Below, piece by piece: positions 1-61,753 of a stretch of DNA of 64,000 bases. The DNA comes from Naegleria gruberi. Lineage: Eukaryota. The position numbers and the translations under genes are program-made. The DNA is taken from assembly GCA_000004985.1 (NCBI GenBank), contig GG738894.1. One strand, given 5' to 3'. Below the pieces are notes generated by a model, which was not told the DNA's origin, made no database searches, and saw only the letters and a program-made list of their open reading frames with translations. Numbering within the stretch: position 1 is the stretch's first letter; each line of letters starts with the position of its first letter.

Positions 1-3000
1 NNNNNNNNNNNNNNNNNNNNNNNNNNNNNNNNNNNNNNNNNNNNNNNNNNNNNNNNNNNNNNNNNNNNNNNNNNNNNNNNNNNNNNNNNNNNNNNNNNNN
101 NNNNNNNNNNNNNNNNNNNNNNNNNNNNNNNNNNNNNNNNNNNNNNNNNNNNNNNNNNNNNNNNNNNNNNNNNNNNNNNNNNNNNNNNNNNNNNNNNNNN
201 NNNNNNNNNNNNNNNNNNNNNNNNNNNNNNNNNNNNNNNNNNNNNNNNNNNNNNNNNNNNNNNNNNNNNNNNNNNNNNNNNNNNNNNNNNNNNNNNNNNN
301 NNNNNNNNNNNNNNNNNNNNNNNNNNNNNNNNNNNNNNNNNNNNNNNNNNNNNNNNNNNNNNNNNNNNNNNNNNNNNNNNNNNNNNNNNNNNNNNNNNNN
401 NNNNNNNNNNNNNNNNNNNNNNNNNNNNNNNNNNNNNNNNNNNNNNNNNNNNNNNNNNNNNNNNNNNNNNNNNNNNNNNNNNNNNNNNNNNNNNNNNNNN
501 NNNNNNNNNNNNNNNNNNNNNNNNNNNNNNNNNNNNNNNNNNNNNNNNNNNNNNNNNNNNNNNNNNNNNNNNNNNNNNNNNNNNNNNNNNNNNNNNNNNN
601 NNNNNNNNNNNNNNNNNNNNNNNNNNNNNNNNNNNNNNNNNNNNNNNNNNNNNNNNNNNNNNNNNNNNNNNNNNNNNNNNNNNNNNNNNNNNNNNNNNNN
701 NNNNNNNNNNNNNNNNNNNNNNNNNNNNNNNNNNNNNNNNNNNNNNNNNNNNNNNNNNNNNNNNNNNNNNNNNNNNNNNNNNNNNNNNNNNNNNNNNNNN
801 NNNNNNNNNNNNNNNNNNNNNNNNNNNNNNNNNNNNNNNNNNNNNNNNNNNNNNNNNNNNNNNNNNNNNNNNNNNNNNNNNNNNNNNNNNNNNNNNNNNN
901 NNNNNNNNNNNNNNNNNNNNNNNNNNNNNNNNNNNNNNNNNNNNNNNNNNNNNNNNNNNNNNNNNNNNNNNNNNNNNNNNNNNNNNNNNNNNNNNNNNNN
1001 NNNNNNNNNNNNNNNNNNNNNNNNNNNNNNNNNNNNNNNNNNNNNNNNNNNNNNNNNNNNNNNNNNNNNNNNNNNNNNNNNNNNNNNNNNNNNNNNNNNN
1101 NNNNNNNNNNNNNNNNNNNNNNNNNNNNNNNNNNNNNNNNNNNNNNNNNNNNNNNNNNNNNNNNNNNNNNNNNNNNNNNNNNNNNNNNNNNNNNNNNNNN
1201 NNNNNNNNNNNNNNNNNNNNNNNNNNNNNNNNNNNNNNNNNNNNNNNNNNNNNNNNNNNNNNNNNNNNNNNNNNNNNNNNNNNNNNNNNNNNNNNNNNNN
1301 NNNNNNNNNNNNNNNNNNNNNNNNNNNNNNNNNNNNNNNNNNNNNNNNNNNNNNNNNNNNNNNNNNNNNNNNNNNNNNNNNNNNNNNNNNNNNNNNNNNN
1401 NNNNNNNNNNNNNNNNNNNNNNNNNNNNNNNNNNNNNNNNNNNNNNNNNNNNNNNNNNNNNNNNNNNNNNNNNNNNNNNNNNNNNNNNNNNNNNNNNNNN
1501 NNNNNNNNNNNNNNNNNNNNNNNNNNNNNNNNNNNNNNNNNNNNNNNNNNNNNNNNNNNNNNNNNNNNNNNNNNNNNNNNNNNNNNNNNNNNNNNNNNNN
1601 NNNNNNNNNNNNNNNNNNNNNNNNNNNNNNNNNNNNNNNNNNNNNNNNNNNNNNNNNNNNNNNNNNNNNNNNNNNNNNNNNNNNNNNNNNNNNNNNNNNN
1701 NNNNNNNNNNNNNNNNNNNNNNNNNNNNNNNNNNNNNNNNNNNNNNNNNNNNNNNNNNNNNNNNNNNNNNNNNNNNNNNNNNNNNNNNNNNNNNNNNNNN
1801 NNNNNNNNNNNNNNNNNNNNNNNNNNNNNNNNNNNNNNNNNNNNNNNNNNNNNNNNNNNNNNNNNNNNNNNNNNNNNNNNNNNNNNNNNNNNNNNNNNNN
1901 NNNNNNNNNNNNNNNNNNNNNNNNNNNNNNNNNNNNNNNNNNNNNNNNNNNNNNNNNNNNNNNNNNNNNNNNNNNNNNNNNNNNNNNNNNNNNNNNNNNN
2001 NNNNNNNNNNNNNNNNNNNNNNNNNNNNNNNNNNNNNNNNNNNNNNNNNNNNNNNNNNNNNNNNNNNNNNNNNNNNNNNNNNNNNNNNNNNNNNNNNNNN
2101 NNNNNNNNNNNNNNNNNNNNNNNNNNNNNNNNNNNNNNNNNNNNNNNNNNNNNNNNNNNNNNNNNNNNNNNNNNNNNNNNNNNNNNNNNNNNNNNNNNNN
2201 NNNNNNNNNNNNNNNNNNNNNNNNNNNNNNNNNNNNNNNNNNNNNNNNNNNNNNNNNNNNNNNNNNNNNNNNNNNNNNNNNNNNNNNNNNNNNNNNNNNN
2301 NNNNNNNNNNNNNNNNNNNNNNNNNNNNNNNNNNNNNNNNNNNNNNNNNNNNNNNNNNNNNNNNNNNNNNNNNNNNNNNNNNNNNNNNNNNNNNNNNNNN
2401 NNNNNNNNNNNNNNNNNNNNNNNNNNNNNNNNNNNNNNNNNNNNNNNNNNNNNNNNNNNNNNNNNNNNNNNNNNNNNNNNNNNNNNNNNNNNNNNNNNNN
2501 NNNNNNNNNNNNNNNNNNNNNNNNNNNNNNNNNNNNNNNNNNNNNNNNNNNNNNNNNNNNNNNNNNNNNNNNNNNNNNNNNNNNNNNNNNNNNNNNNNNN
2601 NNNNNNNNNNNNNNNNNNNNNNNNNNNNNNNNNNNNNNNNNNNNNNNNNNNNNNNNNNNNNNNNNNNNNNNNNNNNNNNNNNNNNNNNNNNNNNNNNNNN
2701 NNNNNNNNNNNNNNNNNNNNNNNNNNNNNNNNNNNNNNNNNNNNNNNNNNNNNNNNNNNNNNNNNNNNNNNNNNNNNNNNNNNNNNNNNNNNNNNNNNNN
2801 NNNNNNNNNNNNNNNNNNNNNNNNNNNNNNNNNNNNNNNNNNNNNNNNNNNNNNNNNNNNNNNNNNNNNNNNNNNNNNNNNNNNNNNNNNNNNNNNNNNN
2901 NNNNNNNNNNNNNNNNNNNNNNNNNNNNNNNNNNNNNNNNNNNNNNNNNNNNNNNNNNNNNNNNNNNNNNNNNNNNNNNNNNNNNNNNNNNNNNNNNNNN

Positions 3001-6000
3001 NNNNNNNNNNNNNNNNNNNNNNNNNNNNNNNNNNNNNNNNNNNNNNNNNNNNNNNNNNNNNNNNNNNNNNNNNNNNNNNNNNNNNNNNNNNNNNNNNNNN
3101 NNNNNNNNNNNNNNNNNNNNNNNNNNNNNNNNNNNNNNNNNNNNNNNNNNNNNNNNNNNNNNNNNNNNNNNNNNNNNNNNNNNNNNNNNNNNNNNNNNNN
3201 NNNNNNNNNNNNNNNNNNNNNNNNNNNNNNNNNNNNNNNNNNNNNNNNNNNNNNNNNNNNNNNNNNNNNNNNNNNNNNNNNNNNNNNNNNNNNNNNNNNN
3301 NNNNNNNNNNNNNNNNNNNNNNNNNNNNNNNNNNNNNNNNNNNNNNNNNNNNNNNNNNNNNNNNNNNNNNNNNNNNNNNNNNNNNNNNNNNNNNNNNNNN
3401 NNNNNNNNNNNNNNNNNNNNNNNNNNNNNNNNNNNNNNNNNNNNNNNNNNNNNNNNNNNNNNNNNNNNNNNNNNNNNNNNNNNNNNNNNNNNNNNNNNNN
3501 NNNNNNNNNNNNNNNNNNNNNNNNNNNNNNNNNNNNNNNNNNNNNNNNNNNNNNNNNNNNNNNNNNNNNNNNNNNNNNNNNNNNNNNNNNNNNNNNNNNN
3601 NNNNNNNNNNNNNNNNNNNNNNNNNNNNNNNNNNNNNNNNNNNNNNNNNNNNNNNNNNNNNNNNNNNNNNNNNNNNNNNNNNNNNNNNNNNNNNNNNNNN
3701 NNNNNNNNNNNNNNNNNNNNNNNNNNNNNNNNNNNNNNNNNNNNNNNNNNNNNNNNNNNNNNNNNNNNNNNNNNNNNNNNNNNNNNNNNNNNNNNNNNNN
3801 NNNNNNNNNNNNNNNNNNNNNNNNNNNNNNNNNNNNNNNNNNNNNNNNNNNNNNNNNNNNNNNNNNNNNNNNNNNNNNNNNNNNNNNNNNNNNNNNNNNN
3901 NNNNNNNNNNNNNNNNNNNNNNNNNNNNNNNNNNNNNNNNNNNNNNNNNNNNNNNNNNNNNNNNNNNNNNNNNNNNNNNNNNNNNNNNNNNNNNNNNNNN
4001 NNNNNNNNNNNNNNNNNNNNNNNNNNNNNNNNNNNNNNNNNNNNNNNNNNNNNNNNNNNNNNNNNNNNNNNNNNNNNNNNNNNNNNNNNNNNNNNNNNNN
4101 NNNNNNNNNNNNNNNNNNNNNNNNNNNNNNNNNNNNNNNNNNNNNNNNNNNNNNNNNNNNNNNNNNNNNNNNNNNNNNNNNNNNNNNNNNNNNNNNNNNN
4201 NNNNNNNNNNNNNNNNNNNNNNNNNNNNNNNNNNNNNNNNNNNNNNNNNNNNNNNNNNNNNNNNNNNNNNNNNNNNNNNNNNNNNNNNNNNNNNNNNNNN
4301 NNNNNNNNNNNNNNNNNNNNNNNNNNNNNNNNNNNNNNNNNNNNNNNNNNNNNNNNNNNNNNNNNNNNNNNNNNNNNNNNNNNNNNNNNNNNNNNNNNNN
4401 NNNNNNNNNNNNNNNNNNNNNNNNNNNNNNNNNNNNNNNNNNNNNNNNNNNNNNNNNNNNNNNNNNNNNNNNNNNNNNNNNNNNNNNNNNNNNNNNNNNN
4501 NNNNNNNNNNNNNNNNNNNNNNNNNNNNNNNNNNNNNNNNNNNNNNNNNNNNNNNNNNNNNNNNNNNNNNNNNNNNNNNNNNNNNNNNNNNNNNNNNNNN
4601 NNNNNNNNNNNNNNNNNNNNNNNNNNNNNNNNNNNNNNNNNNNNNNNNNNNNNNNNNNNNNNNNNNNNNNNNNNNNNNNNNNNNNNNNNNNNNNNNNNNN
4701 NNNNNNNNNNNNNNNNNNNNNNNNNNNNNNNNNNNNNNNNNNNNNNNNNNNNNNNNNNNNNNNNNNNNNNNNNNNNNNNNNNNNNNNNNNNNNNNNNNNN
4801 NNNNNNNNNNNNNNNNNNNNNNNNNNNNNNNNNNNNNNNNNNNNNNNNNNNNNNNNNNNNNNNNNNNNNNNNNNNNNNNNNNNNNNNNNNNNNNNNNNNN
4901 NNNNNNNNNNNNNNNNNNNNNNNNNNNNNNNNNNNNNNNNNNNNNNNNNNNNNNNNNNNNNNNNNNNNNNNNNNNNNNNNNNNNNNNNNNNNNNNNNNNN
5001 NNNNNNNNNNNNNNNNNNNNNNNNNNNNNNNNNNNNNNNNNNNNNNNNNNNNNNNNNNNNNNNNNNNNNNNNNNNNNNNNNNNNNNNNNNNNNNNNNNNN
5101 NNNNNNNNNNNNNNNNNNNNNNNNNNNNNNNNNNNNNNNNNNNNNNNNNNNNNNNNNNNNNNNNNNNNNNNNNNNNNNNNNNNNNNNNNNNNNNNNNNNN
5201 NNNNNNNNNNNNNNNNNNNNNNNNNNNNNNNNNNNNNNNNNNNNNNNNNNNNNNNNNNNNNNNNNNNNNNNNNNNNNNNNNNNNNNNNNNNNNNNNNNNN
5301 NNNNNNNNNNNNNNNNNNNNNNNNNNNNNNNNNNNNNNNNNNNNNNNNNNNNNNNNNNNNNNNNNNNNNNNNNNNNNNNNNNNNNNNNNNNNNNNNNNNN
5401 NNNNNNNNNNNNNNNNNNNNNNNNNNNNNNNNNNNNNNNNNNNNNNNNNNNNNNNNNNNNNNNNNNNNNNNNNNNNNNNNNNNNNNNNNNNNNNNNNNNN
5501 NNNNNNNNNNNNNNNNNNNNNNNNNNNNNNNNNNNNNNNNNNNNNNNNNNNNNNNNNNNNNNNNNNNNNNNNNNNNNNNNNNNNNNNNNNNNNNNNNNNN
5601 NNNNNNNNNNNNNNNNNNNNNNNNNNNNNNNNNNNNNNNNNNNNNNNNNNNNNNNNNNNNNNNNNNNNNNNNNNNNNNNNNNNNNNNNNNNNNNNNNNNN
5701 NNNNNNNNNNNNNNNNNNNNNNNNNNNNNNNNNNNNNNNNNNNNNNNNNNNNNNNNNNNNNNNNNNNNNNNNNNNNNNNNNNNNNNNNNNNNNNNNNNNN
5801 NNNNNNNNNNNNNNNNNNNNNNNNNNNNNNNNNNNNNNNNNNNNNNNNNNNNNNNNNNNNNNNNNNNNNNNNNNNNNNNNNNNNNNNNNNNNNNNNNNNN
5901 NNNNNNNNNNNNNNNNNNNNNNNNNNNNNNNNNNNNNNNNNNNNNNNNNNNNNNNNNNNNNNNNNNNNNNNNNNNNNNNNNNNNNNNNNNNNNNNNNNNN

Positions 6001-9000
6001 NNNNNNNNNNNNNNNNNNNNNNNNNNNNNNNNNNNNNNNNNNNNNNNNNNNNNNNNNNNNNNNNNNNNNNNNNNNNNNNNNNNNNNNNNNNNNNNNNNNN
6101 NNNNNNNNNNNNNNNNNNNNNNNNNNNNNNNNNNNNNNNNNNNNNNNNNNNNNNNNNNNNNNNNNNNNNNNNNNNNNNNNNNNNNNNNNNNNNNNNNNNN
6201 NNNNNNNNNNNNNNNNNNNNNNNNNNNNNNNNNNNNNNNNNNNNNNNNNNNNNNNNNNNNNNNNNNNNNNNNNNNNNNNNNNNNNNNNNNNNNNNNNNNN
6301 NNNNNNNNNNNNNNNNNNNNNNNNNNNNNNNNNNNNNNNNNNNNNNNNNNNNNNNNNNNNNNNNNNNNNNNNNNNNNNNNNNNNNNNNNNNNNNNNNNNN
6401 NNNNNNNNNNNNNNNNNNNNNNNNNNNNNNNNNNNNNNNNNNNNNNNNNNNNNNNNNNNNNNNNNNNNNNNNNNNNNNNNNNNNNNNNNNNNNNNNNNNN
6501 NNNNNNNNNNNNNNNNNNNNNNNNNNNNNNNNNNNNNNNNNNNNNNNNNNNNNNNNNNNNNNNNNNNNNNNNNNNNNNNNNNNNNNNNNNNNNNNNNNNN
6601 NNNNNNNNNNNNNNNNNNNNNNNNNNNNNNNNNNNNNNNNNNNNNNNNNNNNNNNNNNNNNNNNNNNNNNNNNNNNNNNNNNNNNNNNNNNNNNNNNNNN
6701 NNNNNNNNNNNNNNNNNNNNNNNNNNNNNNNNNNNNNNNNNNNNNNNNNNNNNNNNNNNNNNNNNNNNNNNNNNNNNNNNNNNNNNNNNNNNNNNNNNNN
6801 NNNNNNNNNNNNNNNNNNNNNNNNNNNNNNNNNNNNNNNNNNNNNNNNNNNNNNNNNNNNNNNNNNNNNNNNNNNNNNNNNNNNNNNNNNNNNNNNNNNN
6901 NNNNNNNNNNNNNNNNNNNNNNNNNNNNNNNNNNNNNNNNNNNNNNNNNNNNNNNNNNNNNNNNNNNNNNNNNNNNNNNNNNNNNNNNNNNNNNNNNNNN
7001 NNNNNNNNNNNNNNNNNNNNNNNNNNNNNNNNNNNNNNNNNNNNNNNNNNNNNNNNNNNNNNNNNNNNNNNNNNNNNNNNNNNNNNNNNNNNNNNNNNNN
7101 NNNNNNNNNNNNNNNNNNNNNNNNNNNNNNNNNNNNNNNNNNNNNNNNNNNNNNNNNNNNNNNNNNNNNNNNNNNNNNNNNNNNNNNNNNNNNNNNNNNN
7201 NNNNNNNNNNNNNNNNNNNNNNNNNNNNNNNNNNNNNNNNNNNNNNNNNNNNNNNNNNNNNNNNNNNNNNNNNNNNNNNNNNNNNNNNNNNNNNNNNNNN
7301 NNNNNNNNNNNNNNNNNNNNNNNNNNNNNNNNNNNNNNNNNNNNNNNNNNNNNNNNNNNNNNNNNNNNNNNNNNNNNNNNNNNNNNNNNNNNNNNNNNNN
7401 NNNNNNNNNNNNNNNNNNNNNNNNNNNNNNNNNNNNNNNNNNNNNNNNNNNNNNNNNNNNNNNNNNNNNNNNNNNNNNNNNNNNNNNNNNNNNNNNNNNN
7501 NNNNNNNNNNNNNNNNNNNNNNNNNNNNNNNNNNNNNNNNNNNNNNNNNNNNNNNNNNNNNNNNNNNNNNNNNNNNNNNNNNNNNNNNNNNNNNNNNNNN
7601 NNNNNNNNNNNNNNNNNNNNNNNNNNNNNNNNNNNNNNNNNNNNNNNNNNNNNNNNNNNNNNNNNNNNNNNNNNNNNNNNNNNNNNNNNNNNNNNNNNNN
7701 NNNNNNNNNNNNNNNNNNNNNNNNNNNNNNNNNNNNNNNNNNNNNNNNNNNNNNNNNNNNNNNNNNNNNNNNNNNNNNNNNNNNNNNNNNNNNNNNNNNN
7801 NNNNNNNNNNNNNNNNNNNNNNNNNNNNNNNNNNNNNNNNNNNNNNNNNNNNNNNNNNNNNNNNNNNNNNNNNNNNNNNNNNNNNNNNNNNNNNNNNNNN
7901 NNNNNNNNNNNNNNNNNNNNNNNNNNNNNNNNNNNNNNNNNNNNNNNNNNNNNNNNNNNNNNNNNNNNNNNNNNNNNNNNNNNNNNNNNNNNNNNNNNNN
8001 NNNNNNNNNNNNNNNNNNNNNNNNNNNNNNNNNNNNNNNNNNNNNNNNNNNNNNNNNNNNNNNNNNNNNNNNNNNNNNNNNNNNNNNNNNNNNNNNNNNN
8101 NNNNNNNNNNNNNNNNNNNNNNNNNNNNNNNNNNNNNNNNNNNNNNNNNNNNNNNNNNNNNNNNNNNNNNNNNNNNNNNNNNNNNNNNNNNNNNNNNNNN
8201 NNNNNNNNNNNNNNNNNNNNNNNNNNNNNNNNNNNNNNNNNNNNNNNNNNNNNNNNNNNNNNNNNNNNNNNNNNNNNNNNNNNNNNNNNNNNNNNNNNNN
8301 NNNNNNNNNNNNNNNNNNNNNNNNNNNNNNNNNNNNNNNNNNNNNNNNNNNNNNNNNNNNNNNNNNNNNNNNNNNNNNNNNNNNNNNNNNNNNNNNNNNN
8401 NNNNNNNNNNNNNNNNNNNNNNNNNNNNNNNNNNNNNNNNNNNNNNNNNNNNNNNNNNNNNNNNNNNNNNNNNNNNNNNNNNNNNNNNNNNNNNNNNNNN
8501 NNNNNNNNNNNNNNNNNNNNNNNNNNNNNNNNNNNNNNNNNNNNNNNNNNNNNNNNNNNNNNNNNNNNNNNNNNNNNNNNNNNNNNNNNNNNNNNNNNNN
8601 NNNNNNNNNNNNNNNNNNNNNNNNNNNNNNNNNNNNNNNNNNNNNNNNNNNNNNNNNNNNNNNNNNNNNNNNNNNNNNNNNNNNNNNNNNNNNNNNNNNN
8701 NNNNNNNNNNNNNNNNNNNNNNNNNNNNNNNNNNNNNNNNNNNNNNNNNNNNNNNNNNNNNNNNNNNNNNNNNNNNNNNNNNNNNNNNNNNNNNNNNNNN
8801 NNNNNNNNNNNNNNNNNNNNNNNNNNNNNNNNNNNNNNNNNNNNNNNNNNNNNNNNNNNNNNNNNNNNNNNNNNNNNNNNNNNNNNNNNNNNNNNNNNNN
8901 NNNNNNNNNNNNNNNNNNNNNNNNNNNNNNNNNNNNNNNNNNNNNNNNNNNNNNNNNNNNNNNNNNNNNNNNNNNNNNNNNNNNNNNNNNNNNNNNNNNN

Positions 9001-9860
9001 NNNNNNNNNNNNNNNNNNNNNNNNNNNNNNNNNNNNNNNNNNNNNNNNNNNNNNNNNNNNNNNNNNNNNNNNNNNNNNNNNNNNNNNNNNNNNNNNNNNN
9101 NNNNNNNNNNNNNNNNNNNNNNNNNNNNNNNNNNNNNNNNNNNNNNNNNNNNNNNNNNNNNNNNNNNNNNNNNNNNNNNNNNNNNNNNNNNNNNNNNNNN
9201 NNNNNNNNNNNNNNNNNNNNNNNNNNNNNNNNNNNNNNNNNNNNNNNNNNNNNNNNNNNNNNNNNNNNNNNNNNNNNNNNNNNNNNNNNNNNNNNNNNNN
9301 NNNNNNNNNNNNNNNNNNNNNNNNNNNNNNNNNNNNNNNNNNNNNNNNNNNNNNNNNNNNNNNNNNNNNNNNNNNNNNNNNNNNNNNNNNNNNNNNNNNN
9401 NNNNNNNNNNNNNNNNNNNNNNNNNNNNNNNNNNNNNNNNNNNNNNNNNNNNNNNNNNNNNNNNNNNNNNNNNNNNNNNNNNNNNNNNNNNNNNNNNNNN
9501 NNNNNNNNNNNNNNNNNNNNNNNNNNNNNNNNNNNNNNNNNNNNNNNNNNNNNNNNNNNNNNNNNNNNNNNNNNNNNNNNNNNNNNNNNNNNNNNNNNNN
9601 NNNNNNNNNNNNNNNNNNNNNNNNNNNNNNNNNNNNNNNNNNNNNNNNNNNNNNNNNNNNNNNNNNNNNNNNNNNNNNNNNNNNNNNNNNNNNNNNNNNN
9701 NNNNNNNNNNNNNNNNNNNNNNNNNNNNNNNNNNNNNNNNNNNNNNNNNNNNNNNNNNNNNNNNNNNNNNNNNNNNNNNNNNNNNNNNNNNNNNNNNNNN
9801 NNNNNNNNNNNNNNNNNNNNNNNNNNNNNNNNNNNNNNNNNNNNNNNNNNNNNNNNNNNN
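1..9860. other. Assembly gap (unbroken run of N)
   Basis: Positions 1-9860 are all n; real sequence starts at 9861. Confidence 1.
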
Positions 9861-21627: not shown

Positions 21628-23097
21628 ATGCCAGCCAATGTCGGAACTAGAAGAAAATTGAATCCAAATCTTAAGAAGGGATATGTAGCTCCACCAGTTG
21701 AAGATCATATCATCATTGAAGAGGATCAAAAGCAAAAATCACAACAACAACAACCTGTAAAAACAAAGAAGCAACAACAACCAATTGCTAATACTTCATC
21801 ACCAGCAACCACTACTACCACTAACAAGGTTGTTACCAATGCAAATGTACCAACAACAACAACAACAACAGCACCAAAAGCAAAGAATGTAAAATCATCA
21901 TCAGAATCACGTTTTGAAAAGTACGAAAAACAACATGAAGCCTTCATCAAGCAAATGGAAACATTCATGAAGTCCTTCCTTGATTTTGAAAAGGAGAGAT
22001 TGGCCTTCATGAAAGAACAATTCGGATCAAAGAGTGTTGGCACAACCACCACTACACAAACAACTGTGGCCAACAATAAGAAGGATAACAAGACAATTAC
22101 AGCCACAACAACAACTACACCAACAAAAACTACAACTCCTCCTCCAACTAACACAACTGTTAAAACAACAACAGCAACAGCAGCAACTACTACTCCTAAG
22201 AAAAAGACAACAGAACCAACCACAACTCCACAAAATAATACCAATGTAACATCACCAAAATCAACCAAGAATGAAGCAGCAAAGAATAAGGATCCTGCTG
22301 TTGATGCTTCTCCAACTAAGCAACAAACCAAGAAGGCAACAACTACTACTAGCCCTACCACTACTGCCACTACCACCACTACAACTGTACCAACAAAGAT
22401 TAGAGAATTGACTGTAACAAAAGATGAAATTTTTGATAATCTCAAAGTTGTCTATGTGAGTGGTGAAAACATCAAGGCAATTGCCGAGGCTAATAAGGTA
22501 TTCGATACTTTGGAAAAGAAGGATGCTGTATATGGATTTGACATTTTGTGGAATGCAAAGGAGGAAAAGACAATTAACGAAAGCCCAACCGAAACTCACA
22601 TCCTTGTACCAATCAGACTCATCTTATTGGCTAATCATGACACTGTCTTTGTTTATAGACCTCCAACTGCCGAAGAGATGCTTGCTGAAAAGATTGATAG
22701 ACCTCTCCCAGTAGCTCTTTACAAAATTCTCACTCAAAATCAATGTGTCAAGGTTTCATTTAATGCTATTGAAAAGGTCAACTACTTGTACCATAATTTG
22801 AACACTACCTATGTTAGTCATGTATCTGATATCAACTCCCTTTTCGTGAAGGAACCATATGGTTCTGCATTGGATATGTTAAGTAAGGAATTGGAATTAC
22901 CAACAGAACAAGTTTCCAAAGAGCTCAAAATGAGACATAATATTAATTATAGCAAGGAGCTCAGTAATGGCCAACTTGTCACAGTTGCCAAGAGATGTTG
23001 GTTGGAATTAAGACTTGTTGAAAAATTCTCTGAAAAACAAAAAACCAAGACAAATCTATTTGACTTTGTGACCAAAAACATGAAAATTGAAGATTAA
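21628..23097 (+). CDS. Thr/Gln-rich low-complexity protein with a C-terminal 3'-5' exonuclease-like (WRN-exo/RNase D-type) fold, apparently non-catalytic
   Basis: ORF of 489 aa starting at an ATG. Long poly-T/K/P low-complexity tracts explain the antisense V-rich ORF 21726-22445. The C-terminal ~220 aa follow the exonuclease pattern by eye (AVYGFDILW...ILLANHDTVFVY...CVKVSFNAIEKVNYL...YSKELSNGQLVTVAKRCW). The CDS call is solid; the domain call is tentative. Confidence 0.65.
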   Translation: MPANVGTRRKLNPNLKKGYVAPPVEDHIIIEEDQKQKSQQQQPVKTKKQQQPIANTSSPATTTTTNKVVTNANVPTTTTTTAPKAKNVKSSSESRFEKYEKQHEAFIKQMETFMKSFLDFEKERLAFMKEQFGSKSVGTTTTTQTTVANNKKDNKTITATTTTTPTKTTTPPPTNTTVKTTTATAATTTPKKKTTEPTTTPQNNTNVTSPKSTKNEAAKNKDPAVDASPTKQQTKKATTTTSPTTTATTTTTTVPTKIRELTVTKDEIFDNLKVVYVSGENIKAIAEANKVFDTLEKKDAVYGFDILWNAKEEKTINESPTETHILVPIRLILLANHDTVFVYRPPTAEEMLAEKIDRPLPVALYKILTQNQCVKVSFNAIEKVNYLYHNLNTTYVSHVSDINSLFVKEPYGSALDMLSKELELPTEQVSKELKMRHNINYSKELSNGQLVTVAKRCWLELRLVEKFSEKQKTKTNLFDFVTKNMKIED

Positions 23098-54762: not shown

Positions 54763-56784
54763 ATGTCGCTATTCCTCACGCACTGTTTCCCTCATGCTAG
54801 CTCATGCACCGATCACTATGAATCCGATTCGGAATATGAATGTCGTGACGATCTATTCGATTTAAACAGATTCACACAACCAATTCACGTCGGATTGGAT
54901 TTAACAATCGAAGGTTCAAGAAAATTAGGACACTACCTATTGATCATCATGTGGAGGTTAATATTAAAAAGTCCCATGTTATTCCGAGTGAGAGATGAAG
55001 CGAAAGAACAAGTCAAATTGTTGGAGAAATTTTGTTGCCAGAGACACGAAGAGTTTGCTAGGGAGGTTTGTTGTTCGAATCATCATTTGTTTGAAGATTC
55101 GAGTGTGGAAGTGTTTGATGATATGCAGGTGTGGGCTTCCATGAGAGAAAGTGAAGAAAATGAGACACGGGAATACGAAGGAGAAAAGAGAATTAAATTA
55201 GATGCTGAATCCCTGTCAAAAGTTTATACACTTTCGAATTATTTTGCTACTATTGTTAAAAAATACATATTTGGAGAGTTGGCGAAACATGGCACTGCAG
55301 AGATTTACAAATTTATCACAAAGCAAAATAAGATTGCACTTACATTTAAAATTGAGGAGCTCAGAGATATGGTATTGAAATATTTCGAATATACTCCTTC
55401 AATGCTTCCATTGGAAGATCAGGATGTTAAATTATATTTTATTGGAATGACAGCCTTACTGGAATATTTGGCAGCTGAAATGATTGAATTGGGTGGAAAT
55501 GCCGCTAGAGATGCCCGTCAGGAATATATTACACCTTCTTGTTTTGAAATAGCCACTTCAGGAGATGCAGAATTGGAAAGGACGGTACTATTTCACATGA
55601 ACCATTTGCCTCTCGTTGATTTCAATTATTTTTATGGAGCCAATCAAACAGTATTACCTCCTATTGATGTGAATGAGAAAGCCAATAGTGGAGAGGAATT
55701 TAATTTTACTCAACTACCAACTGAATTACATAACACCATACTCAAAAATGTTTCTTCGTTGGAAGAACTTTTGGAAATGAGATTGGTTTGCAAACAATGG
55801 AACTATTTCATCATGAATGATAATGATATTTGGAAGAGTTTAATTTGTAACAATACGATTTCAGAAGATTTATTCAGGTTCTGTGATTCAACTTTTACTG
55901 TTGGTGAGTTGGAAACTATTTTGAGTAGAGGAAAAGATCTAAAACCTCTCCATTTTGGCCAACAAGTAATTAATCATTTCTATGAGAAGAATGATTGGAA
56001 GTCCCTATACTTTATTCTCGTACGAAGACATTTGACATTTATACGTGATTTGGATTTGATGAAATCAAGAGAATTTTTCGATGAATATTTCAATTACGAT
56101 TCTTCTGTAGAATCATATGACAACTCGAAAAAGAAACTGCAAATTGGAATTACAAAGGGTGTATTTGCGAATTTCAACTTTACAAAACACCTATCATCAC
56201 GTGTTTCGTCTAAGGTTTACATTCCTAAAGATGCTCTTTCAGAATTTTTGAAATTTGGAAATAATTATTCACTAGTTGGTGTGATTGACTTTTCAAAATT
56301 CTCCTCCTTCATTTCATGTCGTTTGTTCCCAAAAAATGGATTATTATATTGCTTTTATCACAAAATCAATCAAGCAGATTTTCTATTCTTTGAGAATTAT
56401 TCTCTTGAATCTGAACAATTAATTGAATTTGAAATCAAAGACAAAAGCTTTGAATTTCCTCAACCAATTAATCCATACCAAGTCTACCATGAACAAATTA
56501 TTGTCAATCAACCTTCATGTTGTCCACTCTTTTACTTGCAGCAAGCACAAGGTCATCGTTCAGGTTGCAATCTAGCCCCAAGCGTTCTATTTAACAATAA
56601 TGAAGACAAACCTGAAACAATGATTCAATCCTACCTCAGAGAGGATGACGAGGATAATATAGTACTGCTATCAGACACCTTGGAGGAATCAGAAGATACT
56701 TTTTCTATTTACATTTCAAGAGAGGATTTAATCTTAAGAAAGTTTGAGAATGCAAAAATTGAATATGTGAAACCAAACTACTAG
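54763..56784 (+). CDS. F-box protein containing a histone H2A-like histone-fold segment
   Basis: ATG-initiated ORF of 673 aa. Residues ~190-275 (nt ~55330-55588) align by eye with the H2A core: LLEYLAAEMIELGGNAARDARQEYITPSCFEIATSGDAELERTV versus [44 protein letters not shown]. The F-box lies at residues ~316-360 (LPTELHNTILKNVSSLEELLEMRLVCKQWNYFIMNDNDIWKSL). Confidence 0.8.
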   Translation: MSLFLTHCFPHASSCTDHYESDSEYECRDDLFDLNRFTQPIHVGLDLTIEGSRKLGHYLLIIMWRLILKSPMLFRVRDEAKEQVKLLEKFCCQRHEEFAREVCCSNHHLFEDSSVEVFDDMQVWASMRESEENETREYEGEKRIKLDAESLSKVYTLSNYFATIVKKYIFGELAKHGTAEIYKFITKQNKIALTFKIEELRDMVLKYFEYTPSMLPLEDQDVKLYFIGMTALLEYLAAEMIELGGNAARDARQEYITPSCFEIATSGDAELERTVLFHMNHLPLVDFNYFYGANQTVLPPIDVNEKANSGEEFNFTQLPTELHNTILKNVSSLEELLEMRLVCKQWNYFIMNDNDIWKSLICNNTISEDLFRFCDSTFTVGELETILSRGKDLKPLHFGQQVINHFYEKNDWKSLYFILVRRHLTFIRDLDLMKSREFFDEYFNYDSSVESYDNSKKKLQIGITKGVFANFNFTKHLSSRVSSKVYIPKDALSEFLKFGNNYSLVGVIDFSKFSSFISCRLFPKNGLLYCFYHKINQADFLFFENYSLESEQLIEFEIKDKSFEFPQPINPYQVYHEQIIVNQPSCCPLFYLQQAQGHRSGCNLAPSVLFNNNEDKPETMIQSYLREDDEDNIVLLSDTLEESEDTFSIYISREDLILRKFENAKIEYVKPNY

Positions 56785-57660: not shown

Positions 57661-58770
57661 TTATTCAAAATCTATTGAGATATCAGAGAGTTGATTGTTA
57701 ATTATTTTGATCAATAAATTAGATTTGAAACTATTGATATTGTGGAAGCGCTTCATATGTTCATACAAAAGATATCTCAATGCATACAAGGTCAGTAGGC
57801 ATTGGTTTTCATTTCCGTGACTATATCCATACCATGGAGTGAACATTACCTTCTTAGTTTTGTGAATAACCCATGGATATTTCTGCCTTTCACTTACACT
57901 CCTAGCAAGTAAATGCCAATCATTTACATTACTCAAGGTGGTGTCACAAACTCCACAAATGTATAAATCATCCAATTTCAAACAATCCTCAATAGTCTCT
58001 TCCACTTCACCAATTGTTTGAACTCTATTTTCTAATTTGTTCATACACTTATTCACAAATATAGTCAAGCTCTGATTATCCAATTGATTAATATTTTGTA
58101 GCAAGAGTTGTACATAAGTTCCATCTGTATACTCCACATAACCATCATTTGTGTCCTTTCTTCTCACAAAACCAAGTCTCATTGGAACTGATCGTCCTGC
58201 TCCTCTCAAAAACACTACAGACAACTCTCCACTGTTGATTAAATCATTAATCACACCTACAACAACTGAATCAAATCCCGTATAAGTTCCAGAATATAAC
58301 GTGAAGAAAACAATATTATATCCTCTCAGAAAGCTCCTCATCACTTGAGGTTGCAAGCTACAAAAACTGGATTCATTAATCCGATCCACCTTCTTGAATA
58401 TACATTTCTGATCGAGCATGAATCTCGTCCAATGTGATTCAGTGGACTCCTCCGAAGTCTTGAATAATTTTGGATTTTTAACATAATAACACAATCTCTC
58501 TTCAATACATTGCATAAAGTGGGCAGGTTCTGATGTATCTGCTTGAATAATCAAGGCTGATTGTAATTCATCAAATTCCTTTATAGTCAATTCATCCAAA
58601 TTGTCAGTGATTGCAAGTGGAACCAGATCAATGTCCTTCCTATCATGAGGTGTCCCTGCATCTAGATTATTATCAATTGTATCGTAATCATCCATTTTTT
58701 TTGTTGTAATATTTATTCTAAAAATAATTTGGCTCCATGGTAACAATTTGAAAGCAGTTACACGCAACAT
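57661..58770 (-). CDS. Hypothetical protein
   Basis: ORF of 369 aa with ATGs at 58770 and 58695 (MDDYDTIDNN...). It has ordinary globular composition. No family was recognised. Confidence 0.6.
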   Translation of the reverse strand: MLRVTAFKLLPWSQIIFRINITTKKMDDYDTIDNNLDAGTPHDRKDIDLVPLAITDNLDELTIKEFDELQSALIIQADTSEPAHFMQCIEERLCYYVKNPKLFKTSEESTESHWTRFMLDQKCIFKKVDRINESSFCSLQPQVMRSFLRGYNIVFFTLYSGTYTGFDSVVVGVINDLINSGELSVVFLRGAGRSVPMRLGFVRRKDTNDGYVEYTDGTYVQLLLQNINQLDNQSLTIFVNKCMNKLENRVQTIGEVEETIEDCLKLDDLYICGVCDTTLSNVNDWHLLARSVSERQKYPWVIHKTKKVMFTPWYGYSHGNENQCLLTLYALRYLLYEHMKRFHNINSFKSNLLIKIINNQLSDISIDFE

Positions 58771-59246: not shown

Positions 59247-60454
59247 ATGGAACACAACTCTCATACTTACCCCTCACCATTTCGTTTGACATCCATCTGT
59301 AAAAAAATGTTAGGCAGTAAGATTTGTCTATTGTTGCTTGCATGTTGTGTTGTTTCCCTACTTTTGGTCAACTTCCAAACAGTTAATAGTTCAAGACCCA
59401 ATTGTTCTGATCCATTACCTAAAGATTCCAGTCAATTTAGAAGAAATACCTTGCAACATGCTCTTGAGGAAGAATCTCTTCTTCAAGAAGATGACATGGA
59501 CCACTTGAACACCTTGAGTGCTGTCACTTTGAAAGGTGGCAGAGGTGGTGGAAGAGGTGGACGTGGTCGTGGTGGTGGTAGAGGTGGTAGAGGAGAGGAG
59601 GTAGAGGTAGAGGAGGACGTGGTTCAAGAGGAAGTAGAGGATCCAGAGGTGGTAAAGGAAGTAGAGGAAGCAAAGGTGGTTCAAGATCATCTTCTGGAAG
59701 AGGAAGTAGAGGAAGTAGAGGAGGTGGAAGAGGTAGAGGAAGCAGAGGAAGTAGAAGTGGATCAAGATCATCCTCAAGATCTGGAAGAAACAGTGGAAAG
59801 AGTAGAGGTGGAAAAGCTTCTTCGTCATCATCATCTGCTTCTTCTAAGGGAGCAAGAAGATCTGCAGCATCCAAAGCTAAAGCTACCAACAAATCACCAA
59901 CCGATTTGGGAAGAGTTTCGGTTACTGCCAGACGAACCTCCAAAACTAAAACAACTCAACAACAACAACAACAAGAATCCAAGGAAACTAAAAACAATAG
60001 AACCAAATCAGGAGGAGAAGGTTTACATATTCCATTTACAATGGAAGCTCTCAATATCATGTTCAAGGCCAAGAAGAAATTTGACGGATTTTTGGGACCT
60101 CACACTCAAAGACTTCCTCCAATTCCATTCGTTTCTGATAAACAAACATCTTGTGTGGCATGTAGAGTTGATTGCCTTAAAAGATGGAATGGTTTGGATA
60201 GACGTTCCATTTTTAGTAAGTGTAAGAAACAATTTTACTATTATGGATGTGAAAAAATTGCTCCATGTTTGAGAACGAGAGGAAATGGAGCAAATTTAGA
60301 GGAAGTTGAAGGTATGTTAGGTATTTGTTATGATAGAAATGGTTGTGAATTGGACAGACTTGTCGCCACTCAATATGTCAAACTTTATGGAATTGAAAAT
60401 GCGTCGAGAAGAATTGCAGCTGATATCATGTCTGAAAATCAAGATACTCAATAA
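59247..60454 (+). CDS. Secreted-type protein with an RGG/SR-rich repeat and Cys-rich C-terminal domain; the model needs a frame change near 59591-59597
   Basis: Track ORF 59247-60272 supplies the ATG, a signal-like segment (MLGSKICLLLLACCVVSLLLVNF) and the start of the RGG repeat. The repeat continues as RGGRGRGGRGSRGSRGSRGGKGSRGS... only in the frame of track ORF 59906-60454. That frame opens after the TAG at 59588-59590 and carries the Cys-rich tail (CVACRVDCLKRW...YYYGCEKIAPC...GICYDRNGCE). Confidence 0.5.
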
Positions 60455-60655: not shown

Positions 60656-61720
60656 ATGCTGAAATATTTAGCTGTCATTTGTCTTGTATTTTTTAGTTGT
60701 CATCTTGTGGCTGCAAAATTGCAAGTTACACCAAATAATGAACGTGGCATCAAGGTAGCAAATGGTCAAACTGCTGGTGAACACGAATTTCCTTTCATTG
60801 TTTCCATTCAAAAACAACTTTCGTCCGGAGCTTTCGAACATCTCTGTACAGGAAGTATCCTATCGAGTACATTTGTATTGACAGCTGCTCACTGTTTAGA
60901 CTCATCTACAACACTTGTTGTTGTTTACGGAACTTATGACAATACATGTTCAGATAATTGTAAATACATCAAAGTCAAAAATCAAATTGCTCATCCTTCC
61001 TATCAGAAAGGAACAGAAAGAAATGACATTGCTGTATTTGAACTTGAAAGTGCATTGCCAATTGATGATTCAACTGTTAGTACAGTTTCTATTGATGCAA
61101 ATTCAATTGCAATTCATGATGAGGAAAGTGATTCTTCTAGATTAGTTTTAATTTCTGGTTGGGGAGCTTTGAATTCTAACTTGGATTATCCTAAAAAGTT
61201 ACAAAAGGCATCTGTTCCAATTGTTAAAATGTCATATTGTAATAATTTGAATTTGGGTGGAGTTGATATTGAACAAATTTGTGCAGGAGCTGGAAATGGT
61301 AAGTTTTTACAATTTTAGAAAGTGAATTTCAATAATTTTCATAGGAAGGGATGCTTGCAGTGGAGACAGTGGTGGTCCTTTATTTAGAAAAATATCTTCC
61401 TCTTCAAAATATACTCAATTTGGTGTTGTAAGTATTGAAATACTTTACAAAAAATTATTGAAATATTGTAAAATATTGTAAAATAGGTTTCGACTGGTTA
61501 TGAAACTTGTGGAGCAACTGTTAGTAGAGGACTCTATTCGAATACCACTTTCTATCTATCATTCATTCAAACATACGTCCCAGGAGTTTCTGTTAATCAA
61601 GATTCGGATACTGTCAATCCAGGAGATATTGGAACTGGTAATACTGGAACAGGTTCTCAAATTGTATATACCTCACTATCATTTATTGTACTTTTATTCA
61701 TAATTTCACTAATTTTCTAA
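60656..61720 (+). CDS. Trypsin-like (S1) serine protease with a signal peptide and hydrophobic C-terminal tail (copy 2)
   Basis: Exons are 60656-61298, 61345-61427 and 61487-61720, with introns of 46 and 59 nt (GTAAGT donors); the last exon is absent from the track. The signal is MLKYLAVICLVFFSCHLVAA. The triad contexts are TAAHC, NDIAVF and G-RDACSGDSGGP (restored by splicing). The protein ends ...SLSFIVLLFIISLIF. Confidence 0.9.
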
Positions 61721-61753
61721 GTTATTTGAAAAACAAAACACTTTACAAAAAAA

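Follow-up and report, generated by a model that had tools for sequence, protein, structure and literature searches.

A stretch of 64,000 nucleotides from Naegleria gruberi (contig GG738894.1 of assembly GCA_000004985.1), hereafter the window, carries near its end (59247-60454) a gene for a putative secreted protein with Arg-Gly-Gly (RGG) repeats, whose reading is broken between two frames. Comparison with its relatives indicates that this gene is normally one open reading frame (ORF) and that the window record is one base short. The locus would be one ordinary N. gruberi gene, NAEGRDRAFT_71995, in which one A has been lost from GGAAGA at 59593/59594 within a purine-rich repeat, throwing the reading frame by -1. 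The true product would be the protein read in the RGG frame, whose length is 402 aa if translation starts at the first Met and 382 aa if it starts at the second. In order, it would consist of a signal peptide, a Cys motif near the N-terminus, an acidic stretch, a cationic RGG/SRG linker and a C-terminal domain with eight Cys. Both the long second ORF and the acidic EEVE tail would arise from out-of-frame reading of DNA that is rich in purines and poor in T. It is nearly certain that the break is either a sequence error or a real allele, which leaves recoding, an intron and dual coding, all taken together, with very little room. As to its origin, the explanation somewhat favoured is that the draft assembly miscalled a base, or erred in its consensus, in a repeat that is rich in G/A and varies between haplotypes.

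The two readings were followed in the ORF list and in the three-frame translation. Frame 0 holds an ORF of 341 aa from the ATG at 59247 to 60272, which begins MEHN...GGRGGGRGGRGRGGGRGGRG and, past GGRGGGRGGRGRGGGRGGRG, turns into EEVEVEEDVVQEE..., the start of the acidic EEVEVEE... series. The other frame (frame 2) opens at 59591, after a TAG at 59588-59590, and runs as RRGGRGRGGRGSRGSRG...CVACRVDC...QDTQ to 60454; it reads RRGGRGRGGRGSRGSRGSRGG..., then a Ser/Lys/Gln-rich spacer and the Cys-rich domain up to the stop codon at 60452-60454, and stays open over 287 codons. The sequence-only reading had assigned the signal peptide and the first RGG units to frame 0, and the RGG/SRG repeat with the Cys-rich end at 60454 solely to the frame after the TAG, and both assignments, with their coordinates, are confirmed; its switch point within 59591-59597 is narrowed to 59593/59594 by comparison with an intact 402-aa allele. 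The same division emerges from codon log-likelihoods, for which 18 long ORFs of the window served as the training set. Up to 59594, frame 0 scores +0.25 and +0.91 per codon and frame 2 scores -0.80 and -2.02; from 59816 on, frame 2 scores +0.70, +0.32 and +0.37 and frame 0 scores -0.23, -0.13 and -0.25. Within the purine repeat the codon score cannot separate the two frames. This purine-rich RGG/SRG array, a low-complexity cationic linker at 59535-59815 on the plus strand, is made of AGA, GGT, GGA and AGT codons with periodicities of 9, 27 and 81 nt. Its AGA and GGT/GGA codons are those preferred in the genome (AGA accounts for 64% of Arg); among the long ORFs of the window, by contrast, 24% of Glu codons are GAG, the one used by the frame-0 reading. 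Repeat copies are spaced by multiples of 3 throughout, apart from the pair of spacings across 59584-59598 (32 and 47 nt; repeat finder), so that the triplet register is broken exactly once, by -1. Tandem Repeats Finder (TRF) likewise reports a unit of 14/15 nt with an indel at the site of the break.

The coding sequence (CDS) can be laid out on the plus strand in two parts. The first, in frame 0 (59307-59593), has a positive codon score and starts where the deposited protein of this locus (P0026) starts; it contains the signal-peptide-like stretch MLGSKICLLLLACCVVSLLLVNFQTVNS, the conserved Cys motif SSRPNCSDP near the N-terminus, the acidic stretch and the beginning of the RGG units. An ATG in the same frame at 59247, upstream of 59307, would add 20 residues and is the start used by the gene call on an intact metagenome copy. 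The second part, in frame 2 (59594-60454, including the stop codon), contains the remaining RGG/SRG/KG linker, the Ser/Lys/Gln-rich spacer and the Cys-rich C-terminal domain (60005-60451), whose eight conserved Cys follow the pattern CVACRVDC...F..C...YYYGC...APC...EGM.GIC..RNGC; besides its codon score, this part is identical to P0026 and 99% identical to the protein of the metagenome copy (P0001). Between the two parts, the break is placed at 59593-59594, where one A is absent, by the DNA alignment, TRF, the repeat register and the repair to 402 aa alike. The read-through of frame 0 beyond it (59595-60272), with the EEVEVEE... tail, has a negative codon score and is taken as non-coding sequence that is open by chance.

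The base itself is identified by comparison with intact relatives. P0001 is a single ORF of 402 aa on a metagenome contig of 4,235 nt (L001), which is syntenic with the window, the trypsin and G-alpha genes lying downstream in the same order. Over 4.2 kb the two are 98% identical in DNA, with 44 substitutions and 9 indels, which points to a close N. gruberi-like strain in the sample from which the contig came (an environmental metagenome, ENA ERZ929261, run ERR1078381, PRJEB11402). Within the gene the indels measure 12, 12 and 1 nt, the last alone not being a multiple of 3, and the remaining indels of this kind over the 4.2 kb all fall outside long ORFs. The contig reads GGTAGAGGAAGAGGAGG against GGTAGAGG-AGAGGAGG in the window, from which the A between 59593 and 59594 is absent; the form with the extra A is GGAAGAGG and the window form is GGAGAGG. 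Once a single A is inserted, the window yields an ORF of 402 aa that reads RGGRGRGGRGRGGRGS across the site, identical to EFC35896.1 (P0025), a partial protein from a second N. gruberi copy on a 13,674-bp contig, compared here at the protein level and unbroken at the site. The model of EFC35896.1 also includes a piece of an F-box gene that is 100% identical to window positions 54802-55149, and its locus is for this reason collinear with that of the window. It differs from the window by several substitutions and a 12-nt indel, with the frame break in the window copy only, and would most simply represent the other haplotype. An RGG-type linker within one continuous ORF is also found in an N. fowleri relative (P0016, FDP41_002008). 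The one-nucleotide indel in a purine repeat that had been preferred as the cause is therefore borne out, in that the window lacks one A relative to the intact 402-aa allele. An insertion of 2 nt in place of a deletion of 1 nt was ruled out, the alignment gap being 1 nt, and so was a non-standard genetic code, since frame 2 has many stops upstream of 59588. As deposited, EFC35896.1 is a chimeric model that joins the F-box piece (54802-55149) to the RGG/Cys-rich gene (59385-60454) about 4 kb downstream, passing over a minus-strand gene between its two parts.

The indel thus stands, whereas its attribution to the assembly, the other half of the earlier proposal, is a matter of degree: an error is the explanation we lean towards, and a genuine deletion is a serious though less probable contender. 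Several observations argue for an error. Base calling and consensus building are hard in a G/A-rich repeat such as the one around the site, whose number of units varies among the compared copies. No other damage is seen in the gene, all other coding indels are in frame, and the frameshifted 341-aa product was not encountered elsewhere in the protein collection, either by exact look-up or in a search of 5.8 billion proteins. Other considerations pull the opposite way. The consensus accuracy of Sanger shotgun sequencing is usually high, and the reference of Fritz-Laylin et al. 2010 is said to have been obtained by this method at good depth. The missing base lies outside any long homopolymer, the classic context for such errors. 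The repaired proteins of 402 and 382 aa are absent from the protein collection by exact look-up, so that the extra A of this very allele has no independent sequence confirmation. Moreover, Naegleria has been described as a heterozygous diploid (PMC9928731), which makes a real null allele beside an intact one plausible. Exact look-ups for an independent copy of the allele (EF2, the 341-aa ORF, the 369-aa neighbour and a 220-aa ORF of a trypsin exon) found none on record, and two scans of JGI metagenome contigs, one using the site in both forms (extra base present or absent) and one using a conserved 29-mer of the domain, returned no matches.

If the deletion is genuine, it would be an allele-specific and very recent loss of 1 nt in one of the haplotypes of NEG-M, a clonal axenic strain long kept in culture, the other haplotype being intact, and its predicted product would be a truncated or aberrant secreted protein made of the signal peptide, 20 RGG residues and an out-of-frame acidic tail of 225 residues. 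Besides the reported heterozygosity and the position outside a homopolymer, it is favoured by the two collinear N. gruberi copies on record, diverged and with the break in only one, and by the variation of the repeat between alleles. Against it, the gene shows no second lesion and no other decay, so that only a very recent deletion would fit; the two other indels of the gene and a 72-nt indel in a neighbouring ORF are multiples of 3, as purifying selection predicts; and the frameshifted ORF occurs in no other assembly of the collection. It is improbable, further, that a genuine NEG-M allele gives rise to a secreted protein ending in a new tail that is acidic and rich in EEVE. Were it true, a new protein tail would have been caught arising by frameshift, in place of the RGG linker and the Cys-rich domain, in a family that is confined to Heterolobosea and whose Cys-rich domain is without a known structural relative.

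Whichever of the two applies, GenBank already contains the gene, with the frame break concealed by a pseudo-intron of 20 nt. The deposited protein (EFC40150.1/XP_002672894.1; NAEGRDRAFT_71995) has 375 aa, comes from a 499,907-bp contig of N. gruberi, and shares with EFC35896.1 the 90% identity cluster of P0001. A script showed that it matches, residue for residue, the window CDS from the ATG at 59307 minus 20 nt, and that the sole GT..AG removal reproducing the 375 aa is that of 59578-59597 on the plus strand (GTAGAGGTGGTAGAGGAGAG). This exact reproduction identifies the window as part of the reference scaffold of N. gruberi strain NEG-M and the public model as one that bridges the frame break. 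That the 20 nt are a spliceosomal intron restoring the frame, as the model implies, is very unlikely, even though the GT..AG ends are present and the excision gives the deposited protein exactly. The candidate is 20 nt long, starts GTAGAG and has 55% GC, whereas the introns of the neighbouring trypsin gene, 1.7 kb downstream, are of 46 and 59 nt, start GTAAGT and have 15-20% GC; these two are verified because their removal restores ...GNGRDACSGDSGGP... and ...QFGVVSTGYETCG... (GDSGGP motif). In addition, the bases corresponding to the candidate are translated in frame as RGG units in the metagenome copy and in EFC35896.1. A longer GT..AG intron excising the frame-0 RGG units was also rejected, the same codons standing on both sides and being translated in the relatives. 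The 375-aa model drops 7 repeat residues and should be replaced by a single-exon model of 382 or 402 aa, or flagged as a frameshifted allele. No mention of the NAEGRDRAFT locus tags was found in the literature searched.

Joining of the two frames in vivo, by programmed -1 ribosomal frameshifting or by transcriptional slippage at 59591-59597, would equally give a full-length product, and there is something to recommend it: frame 2 opens exactly where frame 0 departs from the RGG reading, and a -1 shift anywhere in the repeat yields a sensible protein. The signals for such an event were sought at the site. The zero-frame sequence there is A GGA GAG, and no slippery heptamer of the form X XXY YYZ was found near it, the single one in the ORF being AAATTTG at 60077, about 480 nt downstream; nor is there a homopolymer of at least 5 nt in 59500-59900. 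When 59596-59715 was folded, the minimum free energy was -17.4 kcal/mol against -13.2 +/- 2.2 for shuffled sequences (z = -1.9), and the nearest predicted hairpin is weak and starts about 46 nt downstream. Finally, the two-frame layout is not conserved, the metagenome copy, EFC35896.1 and the N. fowleri protein all being single ORFs; with the protein encoded in a single frame in close relatives, there is neither a conserved shift nor a need for one. Frameshifting, which the sequence-only reading had already thought of low probability, has accordingly failed the tests of slippery site, RNA structure and conservation, and is very improbable.

The least probable explanation of all is dual coding, in which the frame-0 ORF past the repeat, as far as 60272, would be a second functional reading. 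The point in its favour is the length of the overlap. Frame 0 remains open for 121 codons past the repeat (59906-60272), and shuffling of the frame-2 codons gives 121 open codons in 1.0% of trials when counted from the start and in 4.3% when counted anywhere, so that the observed run sits at the upper tail (P = 0.01-0.04). The run is nevertheless close to those of other genes, open runs of 99, 106 and 109 codons being found in the +1 frame of other ORFs of the window. The earlier description of both frames as open together for about 120 codons is therefore correct as to length, but by the shuffles and the other runs it is not clearly beyond chance. Further evidence speaks against a second reading. 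Over 59816-60454 frame 0 has codon scores of -0.13 to -0.25, against +0.32 to +0.70 for frame 2. In the stretch past the repeat the window and the metagenome copy differ by two substitutions, one of which, T>G at 60178, is synonymous in the real frame (CTT>CTG, Leu) and makes a TGA in the alternative frame of the metagenome copy. In N. fowleri P0016 this alternative frame is interrupted by 8 stops past the linker, which fall at the Cys-rich domain or beside it. When the 341-aa ORF was searched against the 5.8 billion proteins, matches were confined to its N-terminal third, leaving the frame-0 tail with no homologue. The low rank given earlier to dual coding thus agrees with the codon score, with the TGA and with the stops in the N. 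fowleri relative. Elsewhere in the window, an antisense ORF of 239 aa (21726-22445, minus strand) lies wholly inside a sense ORF of 489 aa (21628-23097, plus strand) and is probably another long alternative frame due to chance. With T-poor purine repeats and this codon usage, chance gives long open alternative frames, which should not be read as evidence of recoding.

The protein itself belongs to an uncharacterised, Heterolobosea-specific family of putatively secreted Cys-rich proteins. A HMMER search with the C-terminal 149 residues retrieved 24 proteins at E<=1e-3, the best being P0001 (99% identity over the domain), and non-self members reached E values of 3e-21. The named matches come from Naegleria, Willaertia or Acrasis, plus one weak plant match. 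A word-indexed homology search with the C-terminal domain, unlike the exhaustive HMMER search, returned no matches. An alignment of 19 family sequences, from N. gruberi, N. fowleri, Willaertia magna, Acrasis kona and environmental contigs, shows a constant plan made of a hydrophobic N-terminal signal (judged by eye from the hydrophobic stretch), a Cys a short way past it, an acidic stretch, a strongly cationic low-complexity linker, a GP motif and the domain with 8 Cys. The N-terminal C33 is invariant in the 19 sequences, as are the Cys of the domain and the G and P, and the C-terminal pattern CxxCxxxC...C...YGC...C...C...C, with the GP motif ahead of it, is present in the gene of the window. 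Pfam gave no domain in either frame and holds no model for the family. The C-terminal domain was modelled by AlphaFold2 from the family alignment with a predicted local distance difference test (pLDDT) score of 89 and a predicted template modelling (pTM) score of 0.83, and the model found no match among PDB structures. From this architecture, a secreted or cell-surface role may be inferred. The linker is of the RGG/SRG type in the window gene and in N. fowleri FDP41_002008, and is amphipathic and rich in Arg/Lys in other members, for example RRLGRRLRRLGRRL... or KKLGKKIKKGVKK.... In five relatives, both paralogues and orthologues (P0002, P0003, P0006, P0008 and P0010), long Arg/Lys-rich amphipathic repeats such as RRLGRRLRRLGRRLGRGLRRIGRGIGR..., FRRFRRFFRRVGRVFRRIGRFIGRVLKGVFKLF and KKLGKKIKKGVKKIGKGIKK... 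follow the acidic stretch at the linker position. The Arg/Lys-rich linkers of the relatives look like cationic antimicrobial-peptide precursors, and it may be speculated that the cationic linkers are set free as antimicrobial-like peptides and that the acidic stretch serves as a neutralising pro-piece. The family is mildly interesting as a set of secreted proteins that is confined to one lineage and uncharacterised, and whose domain, predicted with confidence, has no PDB match; the frame break, as an ordinary single-base indel, carries little biological weight.

The surroundings of the gene are eukaryotic, with neighbouring ORFs for EF2, an F-box protein, RCC1, G-alpha and a trypsin-like protease by Pfam. 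Positions 1-9860 of the window are Ns (a scaffold gap), and about 54 kb carries sequence. The gene for the trypsin-like serine protease occupies 60656-61747 on the plus strand, and its introns, at 61299-61344 (46 nt) and 61428-61486 (59 nt), both have the form GTAAGT...TAG with 15-20% GC. The N-terminus of the protease is signal-like, and its hydrophobic tail at the C-terminus, SLSFIVLLFIISLIF, suggests anchoring in the membrane directly or through glycosylphosphatidylinositol (GPI). On the other side, a minus-strand ORF of 369 aa (57661-58770), for which no Pfam domain was found, shows at 58741, near its N-terminus, the 72-nt in-frame length difference from the metagenome contig, which may be an indel polymorphism or an unrecognised intron.

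Compared with known systems, the locus bears a likeness to the programmed -1 sites of retroviral gag-pol and coronavirus ORF1a/1b, which combine a slippery heptamer with a pseudoknot or hairpin downstream and also have overlapping ORFs in a -1 relation and for which a sensible fusion is possible, but it differs from them in having neither a heptamer nor a stimulatory structure at the right distance, and in that the shift is not conserved. The pattern is the same as that of draft eukaryotic assemblies in which 1-nt frameshifts are bridged by very short pseudo-introns; the relatives are intact here, and nothing sets NAEGRDRAFT_71995 apart from such cases. The repeat recalls the RGG boxes, or glycine- and arginine-rich (GAR) boxes, of the fibrillarin, nucleolin and FUS type, being a low-complexity RGG/SRG sequence encoded by AGA/GGT/GGA arrays. 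Unlike those of RGG/GAR proteins, however, it is placed between a signal-peptide-like N-terminus and a Cys-rich domain of disulfide type, and Pfam detected no RNA recognition motif (RRM) or other nucleic-acid-binding domain in the protein. Paralogues carry other cationic linkers at the RGG position (RRLGRRL, KKxGK). Given these differences, the resemblance is one of composition and not of homology. The closest parallels to the protein are within its own family, where the same architecture is shared by NAEGRDRAFT_63246, 59834, 50935 and 73150 of N. gruberi, by FDP41_000343, 000344, 002008 and 008784 of N. fowleri, by ABK040_001764 of Willaertia magna and, weakly, by AKO1_008934 of Acrasis kona. 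All have in common the N-terminal Cys, the GP motif and the eight C-terminal Cys, and the window member and FDP41_002008 differ from most of the others in carrying RGG/SRG repeats instead of an amphipathic Arg/Lys-rich linker.
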